IMG/VR virus record: IMGVR_UViG_3300020463_000007
Span: 32,001-96,000 of that record
Strand: one strand, 5' to 3'
Length of the DNA stretch: 64,000 nt
Source of the DNA: a virus
Below are positions 23,455 through 35,715 of this stretch, in pieces; position 1 is the stretch's first letter; each line of letters opens with the position of its first letter. The notes under the pieces are model-generated. The model saw only the letters and a program-made list of their open reading frames with translations. It was not told the origin of the DNA and ran no database searches. The position numbers and the translations under genes were made by a program.

Positions 23455-25287
23455 TTATTCGTTTTCTATTTTAAATAAATGATTGTATTCTGGTAGATAT
23501 AAGTATTCAATTTTACTATCTTTTAAGGTCCTTAAAGCATCATCTAGTGTTTCGACCAAAGGTTCACCTCCTAGATTAAAGCTAGTATTGAAAATTATAG
23601 GACAACCTGTTTTTTCTTTAAATGTTTTGATTAGATCATAATAATGTTTGTTTTGTTTTTCGTTCACTGTTTGTATTCTGCATGTTCCATCAACATGTAT
23701 AATAGCAGGAATTTTTTCTTCAACTCCTGGCTGACAGTTAACAGCATACATCATTGTAGGAGAACTTTCCATACCTCTCAAATCAAACCATTCATGCACA
23801 TCTTCTTCTAAGATAGTTCCTGCAAAAGGTCTGAAGTATTCTCTGCGTTTTACTTCATTTACATGATCTTTGCCTTTAGGATCTGTTGGATCATACAGTA
23901 ATGATCTATTACCTAAAGCTCTTGGACCATTTTCGCTTCTACCTTGGAATATTGCAACAATATTTTTATCTGTAATCAAATCAACTACATCTGCGTGTGT
24001 AACATTTTCTTTTACTTCTGCTTGATATGTTTTACCAATCGACTTTAATTGTTGTAATGTAAAATCGTAAGCTGGTCCTAAATAAAGATTATCGCCTGCC
24101 CTATCTTTGTCTTTTTGATAATAATACACGTTCTGTGTAAGTTCGTGATATAAAATTAAGGCTGCTCCCATAGCTGTACCAGCATCATTGCTAACAGGTT
24201 CGACATAAATGTTTAAATCTAAATCTTCTAGGTCTTTTAAGTAATGATAATTTGCAACACAATTTAAACCATAACCTCCACTTACTACAACATTTTTATT
24301 TCCTGATAGCTCAACTGCTTTTCTTATTAAATTACTAGCCTGTTGTTGTGTTTCTATTTGGCAAGCATAAGCAAGATCTCTTCTATTCTTTAAAATTGTT
24401 AAATCTACTTCGTCACCTTCTGGAGTTCCATTATCAACTGAGTCTGCACTCAGTTCATTGTAAAATTTATCATTTACTAATGCCGCATTAGGATATGTAG
24501 GAATTATTAAGTTTCTATTTGACAAGGGAACTTTGCCTTGGTCATCAAACAGAGTAGGAATATTATTGTTAGGCTTGCCGTATGGGAATAGTCCCATAGT
24601 TTTTCCTGCTTCAATTGCTGTAAAGCCACAATACTGTGTAACTGCTTCATAAACTTTTACAATACCAGCTCTATCACTGATTGTAATATCAAATTCAGTT
24701 TTATCAGCGTTTTGTGCTTTTACATAGTCTACTACGTTGGGACCTCTTGTGCCTACGTGCTTTTGTATTGTACCGAAATCAGCAGGATAATTACAATTAA
24801 AAATAGTTTCTGTTTCAAATCCAAAAGTTTGCTCTCTGCTAATTTCCATAGGAATAAAAGTTCCAGCGCCATCAATTACCACTGCTACTGCATCTGTAAA
24901 CCCGCTACGGTAAAATGCACAACCTGCGTGTAACTTATGATGTTCCATTGCAACATCTATTACTTGTGGATGAGGTTGCTTTCTGGCATGTCTATCAATA
25001 AGTCCAAGTTTTCTACATAATCCTGTGTATGCATCGTCCATAGAAAATTCTAAGGTTGGTCCTGTTTGATCTAAAGGTTGGGTATGAGCAACTACTAAGT
25101 AATCAAGTTTATCTGTGTAATCTAAAATTTTTACTATGGAAGCTAGAGGCCCGCCATCATATTTTGATCTGCTTAATCTTTCCTCTTCTATAGAAAATAC
25201 CACTTCTCCGTCTTTTAATAAACAAACACCTGCATTGTGTCCTCTTGCAATACCTGCAATCCATTTTGAATTATTTTTGTTGCTCAT
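23455..25287 (-). CDS. O-carbamoyltransferase (NodU/CmcH/TobZ family)
   Basis: HN..EEERLSR.K, HHKLHA, DGAG, AGKTMGL, SGGYGLNCVAN, DAGTAMG, ENGPRALGNRS, KRREYFRPFA, HVDGTCRIQTV, NTSFNLGGEPLVET. Confidence 0.93.
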   Translation of the reverse strand: MSNKNNSKWIAGIARGHNAGVCLLKDGEVVFSIEEERLSRSKYDGGPLASIVKILDYTDKLDYLVVAHTQPLDQTGPTLEFSMDDAYTGLCRKLGLIDRHARKQPHPQVIDVAMEHHKLHAGCAFYRSGFTDAVAVVIDGAGTFIPMEISREQTFGFETETIFNCNYPADFGTIQKHVGTRGPNVVDYVKAQNADKTEFDITISDRAGIVKVYEAVTQYCGFTAIEAGKTMGLFPYGKPNNNIPTLFDDQGKVPLSNRNLIIPTYPNAALVNDKFYNELSADSVDNGTPEGDEVDLTILKNRRDLAYACQIETQQQASNLIRKAVELSGNKNVVVSGGYGLNCVANYHYLKDLEDLDLNIYVEPVSNDAGTAMGAALILYHELTQNVYYYQKDKDRAGDNLYLGPAYDFTLQQLKSIGKTYQAEVKENVTHADVVDLITDKNIVAIFQGRSENGPRALGNRSLLYDPTDPKGKDHVNEVKRREYFRPFAGTILEEDVHEWFDLRGMESSPTMMYAVNCQPGVEEKIPAIIHVDGTCRIQTVNEKQNKHYYDLIKTFKEKTGCPIIFNTSFNLGGEPLVETLDDALRTLKDSKIEYLYLPEYNHLFKIENE

Positions 25288-26230
25288 CGTCTTCCTTCGG
25301 TTCTGGTTTACCTAAAACTCTATCAATAATATAGTTATGAATGTCTGAAGTCATTGTCATTAAATGTTCGTTGTGTCTTGATGTAGTTTCATCAGGCATG
25401 ATTCTGATTGGGTCATATACCCTTTCTTTCATTCCTAAATCAATAATGTTAAAGTAATCACAATCTGGATAAGATACGTTGATTGGATATGTTGGTCCAA
25501 GTACTACAGTTGACGGAGTGTCTACCATGTAAGATAAATGTTGTCCTACACTATCACAGCCTACAAAGTGATTTGCAAATTTAATAGCCGCTGTCCAATT
25601 TCTCAATGCAACTTGTTCTGGCATTGCTACATCATCAGTAAACTTATCTTTACTAAAGTCAAATCCCATTTCAGCCATTGTTACAACAGCAAAATCATTT
25701 TCTTGCAGTTTTCTAATTAATGCCTTAAGATCTTTAAATTCTATACTTCTGCCGGTGTTATCTACAAACGAACCATCTACATGTTGAATTGCTCTACCAA
25801 AAGGTTGTATTATTACTACTTTATCTTTTTTTAATTTTTCTTTGACTTGATTTATAATTTGTCTACCGGTTAGTATTTCTTCTTTAGAAAGAAACATTCT
25901 TGGTTTGTCTAGTTTTCTTAAACCTTTATTGTTTATTGCAATGTCATATCCTTGAGCAAGACTTGCTTGTTGATTGTAATATTCCCATATTCTATATGGT
26001 TCTGGAGATACAATATCTCTATCTTTTAATTTTTCTTGAAATAAATTTTTATGCCAATTATCATATGCACGATGGTCAAGATCTGGATGTCCTTTAAATG
26101 CATCTGTGCCGCCTTCGCATACAATAACAAAATCGTCATCATCTGATTCTTTTGCGTATAATTCGAAAGCCGGTATTGAACTTACTACTCTACCGTAGCC
26201 ACCGTTCACAAAAAAAGCCTTTGATCTCAT
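25271..26230 (-). CDS. Glycosyltransferase, GT9 (heptosyltransferase)-like
   Basis: FVGCDSVGQHL..TPSTVVLGPT matches the GT9 DS..H...V.L.GPT motif; GGYGR near N-terminus. Confidence 0.75.
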   Translation of the reverse strand: MRSKAFFVNGGYGRVVSSIPAFELYAKESDDDDFVIVCEGGTDAFKGHPDLDHRAYDNWHKNLFQEKLKDRDIVSPEPYRIWEYYNQQASLAQGYDIAINNKGLRKLDKPRMFLSKEEILTGRQIINQVKEKLKKDKVVIIQPFGRAIQHVDGSFVDNTGRSIEFKDLKALIRKLQENDFAVVTMAEMGFDFSKDKFTDDVAMPEQVALRNWTAAIKFANHFVGCDSVGQHLSYMVDTPSTVVLGPTYPINVSYPDCDYFNIIDLGMKERVYDPIRIMPDETTSRHNEHLMTMTSDIHNYIIDRVLGKPEPKEDDEQQK

Positions 26231-26316: not shown

Positions 26317-27003
26317 TTATTCCCAGGTAAAGCTAATTTGTTTATGTGGAATTTTCCAAGCATCAATGCTTGCATAGTTAGTCCTTACAGATTTTAACCA
26401 TGTTGCGATTGTTTGCATTTCTGTTTTTTGATCAGATGTAAACTCGTCAGCTTTATCAGTAATTGCTGCTTCGATTCTAGCTGCTTCGGCATCATAACCA
26501 TCAAACAAAGCTGATTTATCTATAGGATGAGCCAAATATGGAGGCATTGTAAATTTGCCTGTGCCTGAATTATATTTTACTGGTGTCGAACCATCATGTA
26601 TACTCTGCACAAAGTTTTGTGTATTATAGGAGTATTCATAGTTCTCATCATCACCTGGTGTTGTAAATTTGTAATCTGCTATACCACCTGTAGCATCTTT
26701 TGCTGGTATTGTATCGTCGCCAAGCAAATATGCTGCTACTTCTGGATTATCATTAGCGTCAAGTATGTGAAAAGTATGTGGACCATTCATTGTACTATCA
26801 TCATGTTTGTGATCAGGTAATTGGTTATCCAGTACATCCTTACTGTCATCACTGCTTTCTATTGTAAATAAATTTCCATCTTTGTCAACACTAAAGATGT
26901 GGTAACGTATACCTCTCCAAGTAACATCTACTGTGTTTCCGTCGGTCACAGAAGGGTTCCATGGTTCATTTGGATACGTGTATGTAAAAGTTTTTGTAAT
27001 CAT
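26317..27003 (-). CDS. Probable tail-fibre assembly chaperone
   Basis: Acidic; C-terminal helix ending WLKSVR..Y...WKIP resembles Tfa-type ends; follows fibre-tip genes. Confidence 0.5.
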   Translation of the reverse strand: MITKTFTYTYPNEPWNPSVTDGNTVDVTWRGIRYHIFSVDKDGNLFTIESSDDSKDVLDNQLPDHKHDDSTMNGPHTFHILDANDNPEVAAYLLGDDTIPAKDATGGIADYKFTTPGDDENYEYSYNTQNFVQSIHDGSTPVKYNSGTGKFTMPPYLAHPIDKSALFDGYDAEAARIEAAITDKADEFTSDQKTEMQTIATWLKSVRTNYASIDAWKIPHKQISFTWE

Positions 27004-27061: not shown

Positions 27062-28159
27062 TTACTGATCATGACTCTCTATAGCACCTCTGTATTTAAT
27101 CCTAACAATACTGTTTCCACCGGAAAATCCATGTGTTCTAACACTACTACAAGCAAAAGTAGATGGTGCTGGCATAGCTGGTCTCCACCACGATTGGCAA
27201 CCCGTAAATTCATAACATTCGCACATTTTATTACCACTCCAACAACTTGTTGGTCTACCACCTCTTGTTGGTCCTCTATCCAATCCTTGAACAGCATGAT
27301 CCATACTTTGGAATGGAGATCCTGCGTAAGTATACATGTCGTTCCAAGTATGATTAACTTGCATTTCTGCTCCGCATGTTGCATATAACATAGGTGGTGT
27401 ATGGATAATCTGTCTGTGACAGGGCCAACAACATGGGTTACAATGTCCATAGAAATGACAAGCTATTCTGTTAACATCTCCAGGACAGCAAACAATATTT
27501 TTAAAATATGAAGTTCCTGCTCCGCCAATATATGCTTGAGGTAAACTACTTGTAGTAGGCCAGTTATTTCCTGATCCTAAGTTACATACTATTCCACAAC
27601 CCGCACCAGTAGCGTTACCGTCTAGGTCAAATCCTGGTGTAATACATGCACCATTTGATCCCAAACAGCACATCATTGAACCATCGTTAATACACATACT
27701 TCTGCCGCCATATCCGTTTTGAGCACAGATACACGCACACGTATATGTACAAGCTGGTACATTTCCTGGGCATATCGTAACACATGCAGATCCAGTGTTA
27801 CCACCACACATACAGTTGCCTCCTGAATTACAAGAACGACCTCCATAAATCCAAATATAACCATTAGCAGTCATAGGTGTTGTAATTCTCATATAGGCAC
27901 CCGGATTACCTCCTACGCCTGCACCACAACAACACAAACAAGCACTACCTCTACCGCCTGCACCCCAAATTTCTATTTCTAAGTCAACAACTTTGTTTGA
28001 ATCACAAGTAATTTGACAGCCATACCATTTTGCACAGTGAGGGTACTCATTGAAGTTTCCAGGAGTAAATCCCCAGATTCTTCCGTATTCTAAATTAGTT
28101 TCTTTGAAGCCAGTTGTTAAAAGCTCTCTTGAATTTAATAATGATTTTAATGTAGCCAT
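27062..28159 (-). CDS. Cys/Gly-rich fibre-tip/adhesin paralogue 3
   Basis: MATL..NLE.G, EIWGAGG, CCC, C.CYE..GC, GG..VRI; about 35 Cys by manual count. Confidence 0.75.
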   Translation of the reverse strand: MATLKSLLNSRELLTTGFKETNLEYGRIWGFTPGNFNEYPHCAKWYGCQITCDSNKVVDLEIEIWGAGGRGSACLCCCGAGVGGNPGAYMRITTPMTANGYIWIYGGRSCNSGGNCMCGGNTGSACVTICPGNVPACTYTCACICAQNGYGGRSMCINDGSMMCCLGSNGACITPGFDLDGNATGAGCGIVCNLGSGNNWPTTSSLPQAYIGGAGTSYFKNIVCCPGDVNRIACHFYGHCNPCCWPCHRQIIHTPPMLYATCGAEMQVNHTWNDMYTYAGSPFQSMDHAVQGLDRGPTRGGRPTSCWSGNKMCECYEFTGCQSWWRPAMPAPSTFACSSVRTHGFSGGNSIVRIKYRGAIESHDQ

Positions 28160-28175
28160 ATTTTTTTATTCCTAA

Positions 28176-29171
28176 TTAAGTCGCCTTATATAAAATTCTA
28201 ACATATCCAAGGCCTCCTCTAGAGCCAACGTCTCTAACGTCTGGACAACCCATTGCCATAGTAGCGCCTTGTCCTGGTGGTACAAAAGGCACACAACCTA
28301 TTGCTTCATAACAAGCACAAATTTTAGCTGAATTCCAACAACTACCTGTGCTTGGATGCATTGGTGAAATATTTCTTGCAACAGCGCCTTTGGCATTCAT
28401 TTGAGGTGCTCGCCAGTTTCCTGATTGTGCTTGACCTGGCATGTTTCCATCGTCCCCTGCATGCATTGATGTTGCTTGATATCCGCCTGACACGTATTGT
28501 CCATGGGGTATAGCATTTGATGCTTGTATATAATCTGTGTTTGAGCTGGTGTCGCAAGTCCATTGTCCATTACAGGAATATGTACCTGGGCAGTTGATAT
28601 CACCTCCATATGCTGTTGCTACTGCATATGTGTTTCTACATCCACATACAATTCCGCAACCAACACTTAGTCCACAGCCTTGATAAGCTGCGAAACAACA
28701 GTTCTGTAAACAACACATAGCAGATGTACTTGTTCTACATCCTGTAAATCCGCCGTTACCACCTTGAGCACACATACAACTACATGTACTAGCTGTACCT
28801 AAACATATTGACACACAAGTTGCCTCTGAACATCCTGGATAACAAAATGAAGCGTTTGGCATACATGGATGACCTGTGTTACCACAAACATATCCATTAG
28901 CAGTCATAGTTACTGTTTTCTTAGCGTATGAACCTGATTGTCCACCTACGCTGAAGTTACAACAACATTGACACCCTGTTGAACCGCCTGCTCCCCAAAT
29001 CTCAATTAGTGCAGTACCTGCACCTGGTGAATACCAAGCAAAACAATTAGTAAAACATCCAAATTGTCTTGCAGAGCAAAAAACGTAGATTTCGCCGTCT
29101 TCTAAATTACTTTCGTCAATTGGATAACTTTTTGACAGTCTTTCAGTTATTAATGTGTCTAGTGTTGCCAT
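28176..29171 (-). CDS. Cys/Gly-rich fibre-tip/adhesin paralogue 2
   Basis: Same motif order; about 33 Cys. Confidence 0.75.
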   Translation of the reverse strand: MATLDTLITERLSKSYPIDESNLEDGEIYVFCSARQFGCFTNCFAWYSPGAGTALIEIWGAGGSTGCQCCCNFSVGGQSGSYAKKTVTMTANGYVCGNTGHPCMPNASFCYPGCSEATCVSICLGTASTCSCMCAQGGNGGFTGCRTSTSAMCCLQNCCFAAYQGCGLSVGCGIVCGCRNTYAVATAYGGDINCPGTYSCNGQWTCDTSSNTDYIQASNAIPHGQYVSGGYQATSMHAGDDGNMPGQAQSGNWRAPQMNAKGAVARNISPMHPSTGSCWNSAKICACYEAIGCVPFVPPGQGATMAMGCPDVRDVGSRGGLGYVRILYKAT

Positions 29172-29184
29172 TTTCTAATCCTTA

Positions 29185-30201
29185 TCACGTTGCCGCTCTC
29201 CATAAAATTCTTACTGCACCGTGTCCACCGCGTTGACCTTGGTCTCTAACGCTGTTACACGTCATAGACGGAACTCCGCCGTGTCCTCTTGGTGCTGTTG
29301 ATTGGCAGCCGTTGTTTTCATAACATCCGCACAGTCGACTAAAGTAACAAAATTGATTGGTACTCCATCCGTTGGAAGGTGATCTCTTCATTCCTTCTAG
29401 TGCATAGCTATGATAATGATGATATCCAGCCGTACCACCTATTGCTATCTGACTGTCATTGTCTCCTGAGAAGTTTACCATACCTCCACCTGTAGCGTGT
29501 GTACCTGCTGGAACTCTCACATGATATTGTACATAACAGTGATTAGCACTATCACAATTATAAAAACTTGTACAACTAATTCCGCCTGGGCAGTTGATAT
29601 CGCCTCCGTATGCGTTAGCTATCGTTCCTGCCACTGTACCGTCGGTCCTTGTATTACATGCTAGTCCGCAACCTCCACCCCAAGCTGAACCAGCTGGATT
29701 TGTCATTGCTGTTGTACAGAAACTACCGTCTGCTACAAAACAACAAAATGAGCTTGCACTTGGAGCACACATAGTTGTGCCGCCTTCGCCACCTTGGGCA
29801 CATAAACATCCACATATTGTGTTATCACTGGCTGCGCCGAAGTAACAAACACATGTGCCTGTACTTCTGCCTCTGTAACACATTGAGTCAGCGTTGCCGC
29901 ATGAGCTACCTACGCATCCACAAACTTTTGAATTCGCATCTACTAAAAAACATTTTACAACGTATGCTCCTGGATTGCCCGGAACACCCTGACCACAACA
30001 ACACATTTTACCGCCAGAACCACCTGCACCCCAAATTTCAACTCTTAAACAACCGTTACCTGGTGACTTATATGTAAATTTGTGACATTGGCTGTGTTCT
30101 GATGCTGGTGTCCAGTAGAATAGTCTTCCTGTTTCAAGATTCTCTTCTTGACCCACGTAAGCTGGATTTCTACCTTCTATTATCGATTGTAACGTTGCCA
30201 T
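29185..30201 (-). CDS. Cys/Gly-rich fibre-tip/adhesin paralogue 1
   Basis: Same motif order; about 30 Cys. Confidence 0.75.
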   Translation of the reverse strand: MATLQSIIEGRNPAYVGQEENLETGRLFYWTPASEHSQCHKFTYKSPGNGCLRVEIWGAGGSGGKMCCCGQGVPGNPGAYVVKCFLVDANSKVCGCVGSSCGNADSMCYRGRSTGTCVCYFGAASDNTICGCLCAQGGEGGTTMCAPSASSFCCFVADGSFCTTAMTNPAGSAWGGGCGLACNTRTDGTVAGTIANAYGGDINCPGGISCTSFYNCDSANHCYVQYHVRVPAGTHATGGGMVNFSGDNDSQIAIGGTAGYHHYHSYALEGMKRSPSNGWSTNQFCYFSRLCGCYENNGCQSTAPRGHGGVPSMTCNSVRDQGQRGGHGAVRILWRAAT

Positions 30202-30216
30202 TTAAATTTTCTCCGT

Positions 30217-30549
30217 TTAGTTACTTGTAAGAACCCAGCCATAAGTTGCATTTGTATAAGTCAAAGTAATCACAGCGTTAGCTACGTTAATAGTCAAATC
30301 TTCTGCTGTACCTTGTATGTTATTACTGTTGCGTCCTACGGTGATATTATTACTTGCCGCTTGTCCTGCTATGTCGTAAATCTGTACCACGTCACCTGCC
30401 ATTGTATCTGCTGCTGCCGGTAGGGTGATTGTAAAAGCACCACCTGATGCGTCTGCTAAGATACGATCATTAACTAGAGCTTGGTAGGTTGTAGTAATAG
30501 ACCTTACGGTTGAAGCCTGACCTGGAGTTGCATTAATATATCTTCCCAT
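30217..30549 (-). CDS. Small tail-fibre connector protein
   Basis: AFTITLP..GD.V...D......NNITV.RN...I.G...L.Y.....GW beta-sandwich pattern. Confidence 0.65.
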   Translation of the reverse strand: MGRYINATPGQASTVRSITTTYQALVNDRILADASGGAFTITLPAAADTMAGDVVQIYDIAGQAASNNITVGRNSNNIQGTAEDLTINVANAVITLTYTNATYGWVLTSN

Positions 30550-30573: not shown

Positions 30574-30891
30574 TTATGCCGCTGTCTCAATTCCAAACGC
30601 TACTGCACTTACGTTAGCAACATTTGTGTAGACAACTAATAGTTTTCCGGCTTGCATAACAATACCAGTTCTTTCTAGTAACGCCTTTGGTGTAAGTTCT
30701 GTATCAAATTCGATGAACTCACCGTTTGTCGGCGTACTAGCATCTGCTATCGCTAATCTTACGAAGCACGAGCTGTTACCTCTGTTTAGCATATTGATGC
30801 TTACTACAGCAAATGTAGACGCCGGACAGGTATATACAGTTGTATATGTACCTGCTGCTACATCGCTTGCTCCTAATCTTCCACTTGCCAT
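30574..30891 (-). CDS. Small structural adaptor (paralogue of 40920 and 45032 genes)
   Basis: VYTCPA..V..N..IVM.AG..V pattern shared with paralogues. Confidence 0.6.
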   Translation of the reverse strand: MASGRLGASDVAAGTYTTVYTCPASTFAVVSINMLNRGNSSCFVRLAIADASTPTNGEFIEFDTELTPKALLERTGIVMQAGKLLVVYTNVANVSAVAFGIETAA

Positions 30892-30906: not shown

Positions 30907-33900
30907 TTATTGTTGTAGATAGTAGTTCATTGCCAACGGATGTCCGTCAACACCTTTTGCAAAGTTTACTTTCTGTAATGTATTTATTGCAACATTAGTG
31001 GTTGTAGTAATTGTACTACCAGTAATTTGTACCACCCCTGCTGTAATGCTGTTTACATTTAGCTCACCCTGTCCTCCACCTATTTGACTAGTAATATATG
31101 TTTTAATAGCTTTTTGTGTAGGAACGATATTATCGCTGTCTGCGGTAAATGTTCCATCAGTAGAGAATTCTGTAATTGTTGCACCGGTGCCGCCTAATTC
31201 AACGGATCCTAGTTCCAACTGGTTTAATCCTGATATGTTAAATGCATCGGCATTCAGAGTTGCAATACCTGTTGATTGTTCAATACTAAACAAGTCACCA
31301 ACTCTAAAGTTACCATCTTGATCTGTAGATGTAAAGAACACTCTACCACCACCAAAGTTATTTGTTTCTTTAGTTTGATCAGGATTTACATTTGGTGTTC
31401 CTGGATAGTTTGTATCAGAAAAATCACCTGTTCCTATATCAAGATAATCATGTCCAGTCAATCTTGCTTGACTGTATCTAATTGTAACTGTTGTAGCTTC
31501 ACCATGTTCTGGCGCTTCTGTAACTGTAATATCAGGACTTACTTGAAATGTTGCTGCATATGGTCCACTGCCTGTTAAGTTTGTAGTCTTGACAAGTTTA
31601 AACCATTTACCTGCAATTCCTGCAAATGCAACGTTTGCTCCGGCTTGTGGTGCTGATGCTAATCCTGCAATTCTAATATTTGCTCCAGGTTGATATCTAT
31701 CAGCATGACCATCACCTGTTACTGTTGCTTGAGCTGTTGTAAATGCTGTACCTCTGTTAGTCCAAGTTGGTTGCCTTAGAACTCCATCACCAGTTCTAAC
31801 AATATGTGGAGCGTCATCAGTATTGTTAGGATCAGTCAATGTAAATGTAGGTGTACCTGAATAGCCTGTGCCTGGATCCCATATTCTAACTTCTGAAATT
31901 TTTCCGTCTGTAACTTTTACACGACCTTTTGCAATGTCTGCATAAGCACTTACGCCGCCGCCGCTGAAGGTTACTCTTGGTTCGATGATGTAATTTGTTG
32001 TATCATCTAGTGCTGAAACAGGAGATACTCCTGTAACATGATCCCAACCGTCTGTACCATCGCTGTGTTTTTTAATTGTTGCTGTTTTAGAACCTGAATT
32101 ATATGTGTTCACATAACCATACTGGCCGGCGCCTGCACCAGAAGTAATGTATACACTCATTCCTACGTATGTGGTATTAATACCAGTATCAGTATTTGAA
32201 ATAACAATTTGTGTAGTATTTCCAGTTTGTGCAACTCCTGCGGCAGTTTTATATCCTGCTCCACCTAAATCACTTGCTGGATCAGTAAGTCTTACTTCCA
32301 TTACTCCGCCGTCGACAACCACTGCACTATTAACAGCTGCACTATATCCCTCACCAGTTACACTAAAGGTAGTACCACCTGCCGTATAACCTGTTCCTGC
32401 ATTTGTATATTCAAATGTTAAAATATTGTTTCCGTCTGTTAAAACGTTTGCAATTTCTGCTTCTGTCGATTTGTTATCAACAGTACCAGTAATAGCAGTT
32501 TCTGTAGCATCTTGTCCTTCAGCTACTGTACCAAAATCTCCATAAGAGTTATTACCGTTAGTAGCACGAATTTTCCCGCCATTTTCTGCTAAGTAACCTA
32601 CGTGATTATAATATGTAAACACAGACACAAGTTCAGCTCTTCCTAAATTTGTAATCCATGCTCCAATACCGTCACTTAAAATTTGTGTAAAGTCGTTAGC
32701 AACAATTGAATCGTTTCCTGCATCATGTAATGCTCCATCAACTTTCATTCCAATACAAGCTGTGCCAAATGTTGAAACATTTTGTACATAAGGTGATTTA
32801 CTTACAATATGAACATTTGTATCTGCTGGTCCGTATCCTGGATCCAAACTTACAAATGCACCTGCATCTGGACGTTTTGTTCCGTAAGCGTTAGCTGATC
32901 CTAATGCACCTGCTAGTCCACTTATAGTACAATTTCTAAGTCCTGTACCATTTCTCATGTAGAACATATCTTCTTTTGCATTACCACTTACTGAGTTAGC
33001 ATAGTATCTTGCATTTAGTAATGTTTTGTAATTACCTGTAAATTTAAGGTCATATATTACACCATCTAGGTATCTATCAACGTCTCTTCTACATGCTGAC
33101 TCGCTGTATGTATAACTTGGATATGTTGCATTAATAAAAGCTATTGCTTCTGATTTTAAAAATTCTCTGTTTGCCTCAATACATTCTTGTGCAAATAAAT
33201 ATCCTGTATCCGTAGTAGGTGTATTTGTTCCTGTAGTCTGTGGAGTAGTAGAATCGCCACTAGCACCATTTACACGGAAATCAATATAATCTTCTAGCTG
33301 TTGGAATAATCCATTTGCCGCTGTGCCTGCAGCACCTGACCCTGCTACTTTGGAAGTAACTTGACTTTGTGCATTGCCGCCTGTTTTTGTTACAGAACCG
33401 TTTGTACAAATATCACTTATAATTGCTTTAAGTCTTTGGATAGCTGCAATACTCTTTGGTGTATCTGCAGCTCCTGTTACTGCTGGTGAAGCAACAACTT
33501 TTGTACCTCGCAACTCATCTCCAATAACTGCTGTTTCTCTTGGCACAATAATTGGTAAGTGTTCCGTAAATTGGCCTGTTTTACAAAAAAGACTATTGTT
33601 AGCAACTCTTTCTGTTGGAATATTAGTTGTTACGCCAGCGGTTAAAGCGGCTGTCAAAATACCTATTAAAGTATTAACAGTAGTTTGTGCATCTGTTTCT
33701 TCTGTATAATTAGAATCTATAACCTGTGAGTGAGCTGGACTAAAACTGTTTGTTGTTTGATAATTCACAGCTGGTGCTAAATTACTTAATACCCTGTCTA
33801 TAACACTATTCAACATATAGTTAATAGTTTCGTTATTTTTGTCAACTACTCCTGCAACACCTAGTGTGTTTGCAACTGGACTTGTTAAATTTGAACCAGT

Positions 33901-35715
33901 AAAATATCTTAACACATCATCTCTTGTTGATTTATTACCATTATGAGTAAGGTCATGTGTAATTGCATCTACAAGTTTACCCATATCAGCTCTAAATGAA
34001 ATTTGTGCTGCACTATTAAAACTAAACCCAGACCAAATGCCTGCGCCTCCTGATGTTTTGTTTACTGCATATTGTACTGCTTCTTCAACAATAAAATTTC
34101 TGTTTCGTTTTATAAGATAACCAGCATTTTCTCTTAATGCACCTGCTTCAATCTGTTCACATGCATATTTAATGGACTTCCATGGTCTTGCTAGTGTTAC
34201 TCCGTAATTTGATGCTGGTAAGTTTTGTCCTGTACTAGTATCCACATAAAATATATTATTAATTCTACCAATATAACTCCATTCAGGTGCGTTACCTGCT
34301 GAATTAACGGTAAGAACTTGTCCTGCATTACCAATTGGTAATCTTCCTGGTCCTGATCCGCTGTAATAAACTAAATCACCTTGAGTAGTTAAAACATCTG
34401 TCTCTGGCCCGCCTGCAAGTTGATTCCAATATGTGCCACCTGAGTCATTAGCAGGATCGTTTACTCCGTTATTAGAAGTGTGTGCTAAAATACAAATATA
34501 ACTGCTTGTACCTTGTCTTACTGAATCTCCAGCATCATATAATGTTGAATCCGACCAAGCATTTTTCCAAGCAACACCACTGTTTAATTTTTGCCAGTAA
34601 GTTGCATTAGGTGGTCTATGTCCTGAACTATCTGCAATACACAAATAAGTGTATCCACCTAGTCTAACAACATCTCCTGTAAAGTATTCGTAGTTAGAGC
34701 TGTCATCACCCCAGTCGCCTATAAAACGGAAACCTGCTGTAAATAAATCCCAATCACTTGGACTTGAAGTTGGTCTTGCTCCTAAGTTATTTGTTTTAGC
34801 AACATAAGAATATCCACCATATGTAACAAAGTCACCTGGCTGATATCTTGTAACGCCTGCCCAACTATCTTCAAATTCTAATCCTTCAACAAACTGATTC
34901 CATTTTGCTTCATCATCACTTAGATTCGTTTGACTAGTATGGTAAGTTACACAAATCCAAATTGCGCCGCCATGTTTTACAACATCATTTACTTTGTATC
35001 TAGTTGCAGAGGCCCAATCGCCTTTGTATTCAATGCCTTTATTTGAAAATTGCCATTTTGCTTGGTCAGCTTCTAGTCCTGATGAGGCAGTTGATGCTGA
35101 TGTATGTCCTGTAATACAAACATAAACAATACCACCATATTTTACAATATCGTTTACTCTGTATCTAAAACTTGTTGTCCATTCACTTTTCCAATTGAAA
35201 CCTTCTGAAAAAATTTGCCATTTTGCTTGATCTGCTTCTAAACCTAATGATGTACTTGCAGCAGAAGTATGTCCTGTAATACAAATATATACAGTTCCAC
35301 CGTATTTGGCAAGGTCATTGACTTTATATCTATAGCTAGTTGTCCAATCATTTGAATAATTAAAACCTTCAGCGAATGTATCCCACTTAGACTGATCTGC
35401 TTCAAGGCCGTCTGCAACAGATGCTGATGCAGTATGACCAGTGTTTGCAATATATAAATATCCGCCATATGCTACAACATCGTTAACTTTATAAGTTGTA
35501 CCTGCTACCCATTGTCCTTTCCAATCTTGTCCATCGGAAATTTTGTTCCAATAAGATGATTGGCTTGTGGTAAAAGCTGCTGGAGCCGTATGACCTTTAA
35601 TAGCAATATAGGTATTACCGCCATATCTGACAATATCGTCTTTGTAATATGTGGTTCCTGTTACCCAGTCACCTTTCCATATAAATCTTATTCTACCTAG
35701 TTTAAATTCAGCCAT
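30907..35715 (-). CDS. Long tail-fibre/appendage protein A
   Basis: Tandem W....Y..DVV.YGG..Y.C...HTS repeats, then a parallel beta-helix-like region (SPYVQNVS, ANDFTQ); C-terminal TSTDQDGNFR. Confidence 0.8.
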   Translation of the reverse strand: MAEFKLGRIRFIWKGDWVTGTTYYKDDIVRYGGNTYIAIKGHTAPAAFTTSQSSYWNKISDGQDWKGQWVAGTTYKVNDVVAYGGYLYIANTGHTASASVADGLEADQSKWDTFAEGFNYSNDWTTSYRYKVNDLAKYGGTVYICITGHTSAASTSLGLEADQAKWQIFSEGFNWKSEWTTSFRYRVNDIVKYGGIVYVCITGHTSASTASSGLEADQAKWQFSNKGIEYKGDWASATRYKVNDVVKHGGAIWICVTYHTSQTNLSDDEAKWNQFVEGLEFEDSWAGVTRYQPGDFVTYGGYSYVAKTNNLGARPTSSPSDWDLFTAGFRFIGDWGDDSSNYEYFTGDVVRLGGYTYLCIADSSGHRPPNATYWQKLNSGVAWKNAWSDSTLYDAGDSVRQGTSSYICILAHTSNNGVNDPANDSGGTYWNQLAGGPETDVLTTQGDLVYYSGSGPGRLPIGNAGQVLTVNSAGNAPEWSYIGRINNIFYVDTSTGQNLPASNYGVTLARPWKSIKYACEQIEAGALRENAGYLIKRNRNFIVEEAVQYAVNKTSGGAGIWSGFSFNSAAQISFRADMGKLVDAITHDLTHNGNKSTRDDVLRYFTGSNLTSPVANTLGVAGVVDKNNETINYMLNSVIDRVLSNLAPAVNYQTTNSFSPAHSQVIDSNYTEETDAQTTVNTLIGILTAALTAGVTTNIPTERVANNSLFCKTGQFTEHLPIIVPRETAVIGDELRGTKVVASPAVTGAADTPKSIAAIQRLKAIISDICTNGSVTKTGGNAQSQVTSKVAGSGAAGTAANGLFQQLEDYIDFRVNGASGDSTTPQTTGTNTPTTDTGYLFAQECIEANREFLKSEAIAFINATYPSYTYSESACRRDVDRYLDGVIYDLKFTGNYKTLLNARYYANSVSGNAKEDMFYMRNGTGLRNCTISGLAGALGSANAYGTKRPDAGAFVSLDPGYGPADTNVHIVSKSPYVQNVSTFGTACIGMKVDGALHDAGNDSIVANDFTQILSDGIGAWITNLGRAELVSVFTYYNHVGYLAENGGKIRATNGNNSYGDFGTVAEGQDATETAITGTVDNKSTEAEIANVLTDGNNILTFEYTNAGTGYTAGGTTFSVTGEGYSAAVNSAVVVDGGVMEVRLTDPASDLGGAGYKTAAGVAQTGNTTQIVISNTDTGINTTYVGMSVYITSGAGAGQYGYVNTYNSGSKTATIKKHSDGTDGWDHVTGVSPVSALDDTTNYIIEPRVTFSGGGVSAYADIAKGRVKVTDGKISEVRIWDPGTGYSGTPTFTLTDPNNTDDAPHIVRTGDGVLRQPTWTNRGTAFTTAQATVTGDGHADRYQPGANIRIAGLASAPQAGANVAFAGIAGKWFKLVKTTNLTGSGPYAATFQVSPDITVTEAPEHGEATTVTIRYSQARLTGHDYLDIGTGDFSDTNYPGTPNVNPDQTKETNNFGGGRVFFTSTDQDGNFRVGDLFSIEQSTGIATLNADAFNISGLNQLELGSVELGGTGATITEFSTDGTFTADSDNIVPTQKAIKTYITSQIGGGQGELNVNSITAGVVQITGSTITTTTNVAINTLQKVNFAKGVDGHPLAMNYYLQQ

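Follow-up and report, generated by a model that had tools for sequence, protein, structure and literature searches.

The host range of a phage is decided by its receptor-binding tips, and a known fibre fold joins a TNF-like β-sandwich to a glycine-rich lattice. The closest solved relative of the proteins considered here is gp24 of phage Pam3 (PDB 7YPX, 7YFW; PMC9608196, PMC9942802), a trimeric tail fibre in which one gene supplies all three chains of a homotrimer and which depends on a chaperone that the next gene encodes (PMC9608196). The same kind of fold is present in the TG domain of the ALK/LTK receptor ectodomains (PDB 7NX3, 7LIR, 7LS0) and is represented in Pfam by Gly_rich_2 (PF21722). 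Here we describe three tandem paralogues, A, B and C, encoded in a 64,000-nt stretch (positions 32,001 to 96,000) of the IMG/VR virus record IMGVR_UViG_3300020463_000007; this whole stretch is called the window below. The trio is a divergent, cysteine-rich clade of the known TNF-like plus glycine-rich fibre fold (Pam3 gp24, Gly_rich_2, ALK TG). Because that fold has already been described, the trio is not a new class. It departs from the fold in two ways, a Cys density that is unusual for the bacterial cytoplasm and a near-fixed number of three paralogues, and it is this extreme, conserved Cys content together with the near-fixed trio that is new. A full-text literature search found no paper describing the trio.

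The explanation that we favour, to which as a whole we assign a probability of about 0.6, runs as follows. A, B and C would be stand-alone distal tail-fibre adhesins, in each of which a short, conserved docking segment at the N-terminus leads into a TNF-like sandwich and a polyglycine-II lattice, and the host receptor would be contacted by variable loops between the glycine-rich motifs. About 24 conserved cysteines would most likely form a dense disulfide network, which may back up a hydrophobic core that is weak by itself and may lock the exposed tip as soon as the virion reaches oxygenated water. A, B and C would act as an invariable set, most likely combined in a single pseudo-symmetric A-B-C heterotrimer, and assembly may be aided by a co-evolving 228-aa protein encoded downstream.

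All three genes are on the minus strand. Paralogue A, the first of the trio (29,185-30,201), encodes 338 aa with 30 Cys (8.9%), B (28,176-29,171) encodes 331 aa with 33 Cys (10.0%) and C (27,062-28,159) encodes 365 aa with 35 Cys (9.6%). The genes are co-directional and are separated by spacers of 13-16 nt. Open reading frames of at least 100 aa in the window averaged 1.2% Cys, and neighbouring structural proteins contained 0-0.7%. A, B and C are three of the four most Cys-rich reading frames in the window, the other being a 112-aa frame with 10 Cys. The enrichment is real and far beyond chance, and the counts confirm a preliminary description of this DNA, which had reported three tandem paralogues with about 10% Cys and 30-35 Cys each. 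Glycine makes up 14-17% of each protein. Pairwise identity among the paralogues is about 34%, and the four motifs that had been quoted as conserved (EIWGAGG...CCC, C.C.CAQ.G.GG, GCG..C and C.CYE..GC) all fell in invariant columns of the three-way alignment. The loops between them were diverged, as had also been claimed, both in this alignment and in comparisons of orthologues.

The predicted fold of the trio is a TNF-like β-sandwich fused to a polyglycine-II lattice, the fold of the TG domain. The glycine-rich repeats of that domain are present as well, since the WGAGG, GNPGAY, AQGG.GG and RGG.G motifs are conserved and the intervening loops are variable. The best fold matches, Pam3 gp24 and Bxb1 gp33, were both phage tail parts, and the ALK/LTK TG domain was also matched. 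Pam3 gp24 shares the architecture of the trio at a sequence identity of only 18-19%. It differs in being a single-gene homotrimer where the window has three paralogues, in having one functional Cys where the window proteins have about 30 each, and in its long helical N-terminal bundle, where the helix of the window proteins is only about 8 residues long. The 'tail wing brush' domain of mycobacteriophage Bxb1 gp33 (PDB 9D93 chain Q; named in PMC13243192) is 19% identical; it belongs to a siphophage that infects an actinobacterium, and neither Cys richness nor an arrangement in threes is known for it. At the level of sequence, orthologues 69-70% identical to A matched Gly_rich_2 at 24.8-25.7 bits (cut-off 24.3) over profile positions 10-225/226; among 94 family members, 7 matched this model.

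The preliminary description had also likened the trio to gp38-type adhesins. A tail-fibre or adhesin nature with a glycine-rich scaffold is borne out by the polyglycine-II fold and by the position of the genes in a fibre block, but membership of the gp38 family is not. A, B and C matched nothing in Pfam, NCBIfam or the PDB sequences, with no Pfam match even at E<=10, GP38 included, and S16 gp38 (PDB 6F45) was not among the best 50 matches of either structural comparison. The likeness to S16 gp38 consists of a polyglycine-II lattice, hypervariable loops at the fibre tip and a gene that follows a long fibre gene. The gp38 and Pam3 fibre architectures are regarded as related by the Pam3 authors (PMC9608196), and the middle domain of gp38 is a β-helix, not TNF-like (PMC9942802).

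The cysteines of the trio are under strong selection. About 23 alignment columns carried Cys in at least 87% of 165 sequences (55 distinct trios), whichever of the three gene positions was considered. In comparisons of each protein with its four or five closest orthologues, Cys was invariant at 28 of 30 positions in A (93%), 32 of 33 in B (97%) and 30 of 35 in C (86%), compared with 68-77% of Gly and only 29-50% of all other residues in the same sets. The earlier proposal for these proteins had been made to depend on conserved Cys positions, and at 86-97% invariance they are conserved. Variation among orthologues was instead clustered, in residues 181-195 and 255-285 of A, about 226-285 of B (a hypervariable stretch) and 196-225 of C; judged from the alignments, this would be the pattern expected of receptor-contacting loops on a rigid scaffold. 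At the N-terminus a near-invariant E.NLE.G segment is common to all three proteins, its E, N, E and G residues standing at positions 19, 21, 23 and 25 of A.

Three roles had been suggested for the cysteines: binding of metal or an Fe-S cluster, cross-linking on lysis, and attachment of S-linked sugars. The most plausible of these is oxidative cross-linking, and we consider it rather likely that disulfides lock the proteins, probably once they are released into oxygenated water. Ile, Leu, Val, Met and Phe together make up 17-19% of A, B and C compared with 20-30% of the neighbouring proteins. A glycine-lattice fold with a comparatively small aliphatic core would have much to gain from disulfides, and the scarcity of these residues relative to the neighbours suggests that a disulfide network may add to a hydrophobic core that is weak by itself. 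Phage tail disulfides with a function have been documented in Pam3 (PMC9942802) and Milano (PMC10811340). A disulfide cage that forms after lysis, if true, would give a clear example of a virion part whose maturation is triggered by the environment.

The number of copies is also strongly conserved. Locus counts given here and below refer to 80 related IMG/VR loci that carry the Cys-rich family. Exactly three copies were present in 67 of the 80, and most of the exceptions were cut by contig ends. Two relatives that are 98-100% complete (353-364 kb) have exactly three genes each, as does the window's own record. One 70-kb record keeps three copies split 1+2, about 23 kb apart (L043 5363-6319; L056 8001-9935); its lone copy lies in another gene context, without the glycosyltransferase (GT)-like and carbamoyltransferase neighbours described below. 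In a maximum-likelihood tree each gene position formed its own clade within each major phage group, with support of 0.93-1.0, indicating that the triplication is old and that all three lineages have been kept. Orthology between groups was partly permuted. Identity to orthologues was 68-88% for A, 64-85% for B and 56-60% for C, the last in phages whose fibre is 78-86% identical, so that A evolves slowest and C fastest among the three.

On the sequence evidence, this strongly conserved copy number of three would fit the earlier proposal of a heterotrimer or of alternative tips. A 1:1:1 A-B-C heterotrimer is our tentative choice, held at somewhat less than even odds. The A, B and C chains of C1q, whose genes are clustered and which assemble into heterotrimers linked by disulfides, offer a parallel; the parallel with C1q/TNF-superfamily heterotrimers is one of analogy only, and their structural match to the trio is weak. 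We know of no earlier report of a phage receptor-binding tip that is a heterotrimer of three paralogues, and a single tip of three different chains, if true, would be a new route to an asymmetric receptor-binding surface. A more elaborate form of the idea is doubtful: A, B and C might make an obligate tip, a counterpart of the C1q type, whose roughly 90-100 Cys stay reduced in the cell and are oxidised to a disulfide cage only after lysis, thereby switching on both competence to bind the receptor and stability, possibly with heptose or carbamoyl groups added by the two conserved enzymes encoded next to the trio.

The trio is part of a co-directional, tightly spaced block on the minus strand. 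The order of genes is a 1602-aa fibre, a 105-aa protein, a 110-aa protein, A, B, C, a 228-aa protein, a 319-aa GT-like protein and a 610-aa carbamoyltransferase, and each neighbour is kept in 66-69 of the 80 loci. The tail fibre that heads the block (30,907-35,715; phrog_9851 tail fibre, E 6e-222; 66 loci) is a candidate carrier of the Cys-rich tips. Between it and the trio lie the genes for the 105-aa protein (30,574-30,891; phrog_11338 tail fibre, E 4.6e-10; 69 loci) and, directly upstream of A, the 110-aa protein (30,217-30,549; PHROG tail families, E 1e-16 to 1e-9; 69 loci). These two small proteins match stretches, internal or terminal, of PHROG tail spike and tail fibre families whose members are far longer; it looks as though fibre domains had been given small genes of their own. 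Scans of the block for T4 late promoters, sigma-70 promoters and terminators gave no signal above chance.

The same gene order was found in the cultured cyanophages S-CAM3 and P-SSM2. The Cys-rich genes of S-CAM3 number three (gp158, gp157 and gp156; 8-11.6% Cys), and those of P-SSM2 are two, PSSM2_304 and PSSM2_306 (L082 5976-7046 and 7775-8842; 10% Cys), which flank a homologue of the 228-aa protein; all are annotated as hypothetical. PSSM2_304 and PSSM2_306 are predicted to be extended at the N-terminus by about 45 helical residues, after which comes a poly-Gly linker, and in this they are nearer to the long anchor of Pam3 gp24 than are the window proteins with their short N-terminus. Since cultured phages carry the module, both the disulfide cage and the three-chain heterotrimer can be tested directly.

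The 228-aa protein (26,317-27,003, minus strand; 68 of 80 loci) is encoded directly downstream of the trio and is free of Cys. Its homologue in S-CAM3 is gp155, and that of P-SSM2 lies between the two Cys-rich genes. Identity to orthologues was 52-66% where the fibre was 78-86%; it diverges as fast as paralogue C, and these two are the fastest-diverging proteins of the module. The model (pLDDT 95) has an N-terminal β-domain followed by a C-terminal helical hairpin. With this layout, its place after the fibre genes and its co-divergence, the protein brings to mind the Pam3 gp24-gp25 and Mu Tfa pairs (PMC9608196). By analogy with these, the 228-aa protein is a candidate fibre assembly factor, perhaps of a new kind.

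Several observations weigh against the explanation favoured here. Two bear on how far the family and its presumed assembly factor resemble known systems: A, B and C of the window lie below the reach of the Pfam model Gly_rich_2 even at E<=10, and no known fibre chaperone is matched significantly by the 228-aa protein. Against the Pam3 chaperone gp25 this protein scored E 2.8 (7ypx_a), and it had no significant fold match in the PDB by Foldseek or in a wide structural scan, and none in the ESM Atlas. Three others bear on the disulfides. Cys counts were odd as often as even, per protein and per trio, and such random parity means that not all Cys can be in intrachain disulfides. Correlated loss of Cys, first in 165 and then in 268 non-redundant sequences, was weak (best Jaccard index 0.4) with no clean partners; as this signal is also confounded by phylogeny and alignment shifts, no disulfide partners were assigned from it. 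Searches of the window's 155,565-bp record, which is 44% complete according to CheckV, found no Erv1/ALR, thioredoxin, glutaredoxin or DsbA, the Erv1 search being blank in control genomes too.

The odd Cys counts, the reducing cytoplasm in which the proteins are made and the lack of a phage oxidase in the incomplete record would be in keeping with cysteines that bind metal rather than form disulfides, in thiolate clusters of the metallothionein type or in Fe-S or Zn sites. The conserved Cys motifs of the trio are CCC, CxCxC, CC and CxC, and CC, CxC and CCC are known from metallothioneins as well. No CxxC, however, occurs at a conserved position: A has none at all, B has one, and those of C are confined to its variable insert, which also carries an extra CC. 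This argues against ordinary Zn or Fe-S sites, and no Pfam metal-binding domain was found in A, B or C. The cysteines are also spread through a confidently modelled β/polyglycine-II fold instead of being clustered in a module, and virions live in oxic water. Binding of metal or Fe-S, one of the roles put forward earlier, is therefore disfavoured, and we regard it as improbable.

The fixed set of three in the favoured explanation competes with an arrangement in which A, B and C are three separate adhesins, either homotrimers or monomeric caps like S16 gp38, placed on different fibres or sites and conferring three receptor specificities. Pam3 gp24 shows that the fold does not require a heterotrimer, and the presence of only two copies in P-SSM2 and of lone copies in some contexts points the same way. 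In addition, the window encodes several large fibres (1592, 1602 and 2036 aa) on which separate tips might sit, and A, B and C clearly differ in their rates of evolution. Alternative receptor-binding proteins, however, usually differ in number among relatives, whereas here the number stays at three among phages that have diverged very far, in complete genomes too and also where the copies are split. The near-invariant E.NLE.G segment, which would serve for docking, is likewise common to all three. Separate adhesins are possible but on this evidence doubtful.

Virion proteomics has also to be considered, as none was found in the literature for any phage that carries the family. The study of Sullivan 2010 covered only S-SM1, S-PM2 and Syn9, and P-SSM2 genes are absent from its supplements; the ANN paper tested P-SSM2 genes other than the Cys-rich ones. 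This, and the occurrence of the same fold in the ALK/LTK receptor ectodomain, would be in keeping with proteins that are not virion parts at all, such as intracellular or released factors with a glycine-rich fold. The genes nevertheless stand in a conserved, same-strand fibre block with their short spacers, the best fold matches are both tail parts, and the three sequences, when read for such features, contain no signal peptide or membrane segment. A role outside the virion is very unlikely, and a place at the tip of a tail fibre is the reading retained here.

The last two genes of the block are linked firmly to the trio by synteny. The 610-aa protein (23,455-25,287, minus strand; 66 of 80 loci) is, by its matches to Carbam_trans_C (E 8.6e-60) and Carbam_trans_N (E 2.5e-24), unambiguously a carbamoyltransferase of the NodU/CmcH type. 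Its gene overlaps that of the 319-aa GT-like protein (25,271-26,230, minus strand; phrog_8954, E 1e-124; 67 of 80 loci). The latter is highly conserved, with 46 invariant columns in 36 sequences. It hit the NCBIfam models RfaQ (E 5.6e-4; 18.8 bits, where the cut-off is 467) and heptosyltransferase III (17.5 bits, cut-off 170), but no Pfam model at E<=0.1 and no PDB sequence, either as a single sequence or as a 36-sequence profile, so that its assignment as a GT9-like heptosyltransferase is weak.

Glycosylation of the trio by these two enzymes, possibly S-linked and fed by phage ADP-heptose genes, would give the cysteines another meaning, with a Cys/Ser-rich surface as the substrate. GT9-type enzymes are known to heptosylate β-rich adhesins, namely bacterial autotransporters (TibC, AAH). 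The regular presence of both genes after the trio agrees with such a role, as do the ADP-heptose genes near the Cys-rich genes in S-CAM3 and P-SSM2. The GT assignment itself, however, comes from hits far below cut-off, and no observation marks the trio, rather than the fibres or the host lipopolysaccharide, as the target. The near-invariant cysteines, buried in the fold, would be poor acceptors, and we know of S-linked sugars only from unrelated GT2 systems. S-glycosylation by the neighbouring GT, suggested in the preliminary description, thus finds no support, and modification of the trio in general is unlikely, though a shade less so than metal binding. The heptose cluster of S-CAM3 and of P-SSM2 also contains a small cupin annotated as 'cysteine dioxygenase' (L081 13234-13590 and L082 13352-13708, respectively), at a distance of a few kb from the Cys-rich genes. 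In the window's own record the Pfam model CDO_I had no match.

The phage from which the window derives is best judged from its relatives. The complete ones (records L015 and L021, compared with the window's own record G000) are the 353-364 kb genomes mentioned above, and psbA is present neither in these two nor in the window's record. On this basis they are jumbo phages for which a cyanobacterial host is not to be assumed. The window's phage is apparently a member of a jumbo lineage that has its fibre module in common with the Kyanoviridae cyanophages, though cyanobacteria need not be its hosts.

A word-indexed search recovered 461 homologues of the trio, and when 1.84 billion representatives were searched exhaustively with a profile, 235 clusters at 50% identity were obtained, nearly all of them stand-alone proteins of about 310-370 aa. 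All full-length members were Cys-rich (7.2-11.2% in the word-indexed set and 5.6-12.3% in the profile-search set). Because the family profile, which scored 313 bits with paralogue B and 269 bits with C, retrieved only Cys-rich proteins of about 320-370 aa, the family is a separate clade from the ALK/LTK TG domain and PF21722. The single PDB sequence match of the profile, a phycoerythrin linker (E 0.022), was dismissed as compositional. Within PHROGs the trio matched only phrog_4205, to which no function is assigned there (paralogue B, E 8.5e-5). Matches in BFVD comprised uncharacterised proteins of S-CAM3, P-SSM2 and Syn9 and many phage and giant-virus proteins named 'glycine-rich domain-containing'. 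Neither paralogue A nor the 5-kb region matched any of 50,697 phage records by tblastn and megablast, and the cultured carriers came to light only when the GT-like neighbour, and after it S-CAM3 gp157, served as the query. The family is widespread in jumbo phages of marine and probably other aquatic habitats, and occurs in the cultured phages S-CAM3, S-CAM1 and P-SSM2. In one large subgroup (L021 6761-7999; L006-L012, L014, L018-L019, L022-L026) the middle paralogue is longer, at 394-418 aa. These long forms aligned to the profile of the family as two segments that overlap (positions 1-125 and 96-321), which implies that glycine-rich motifs have been duplicated or inserted internally.

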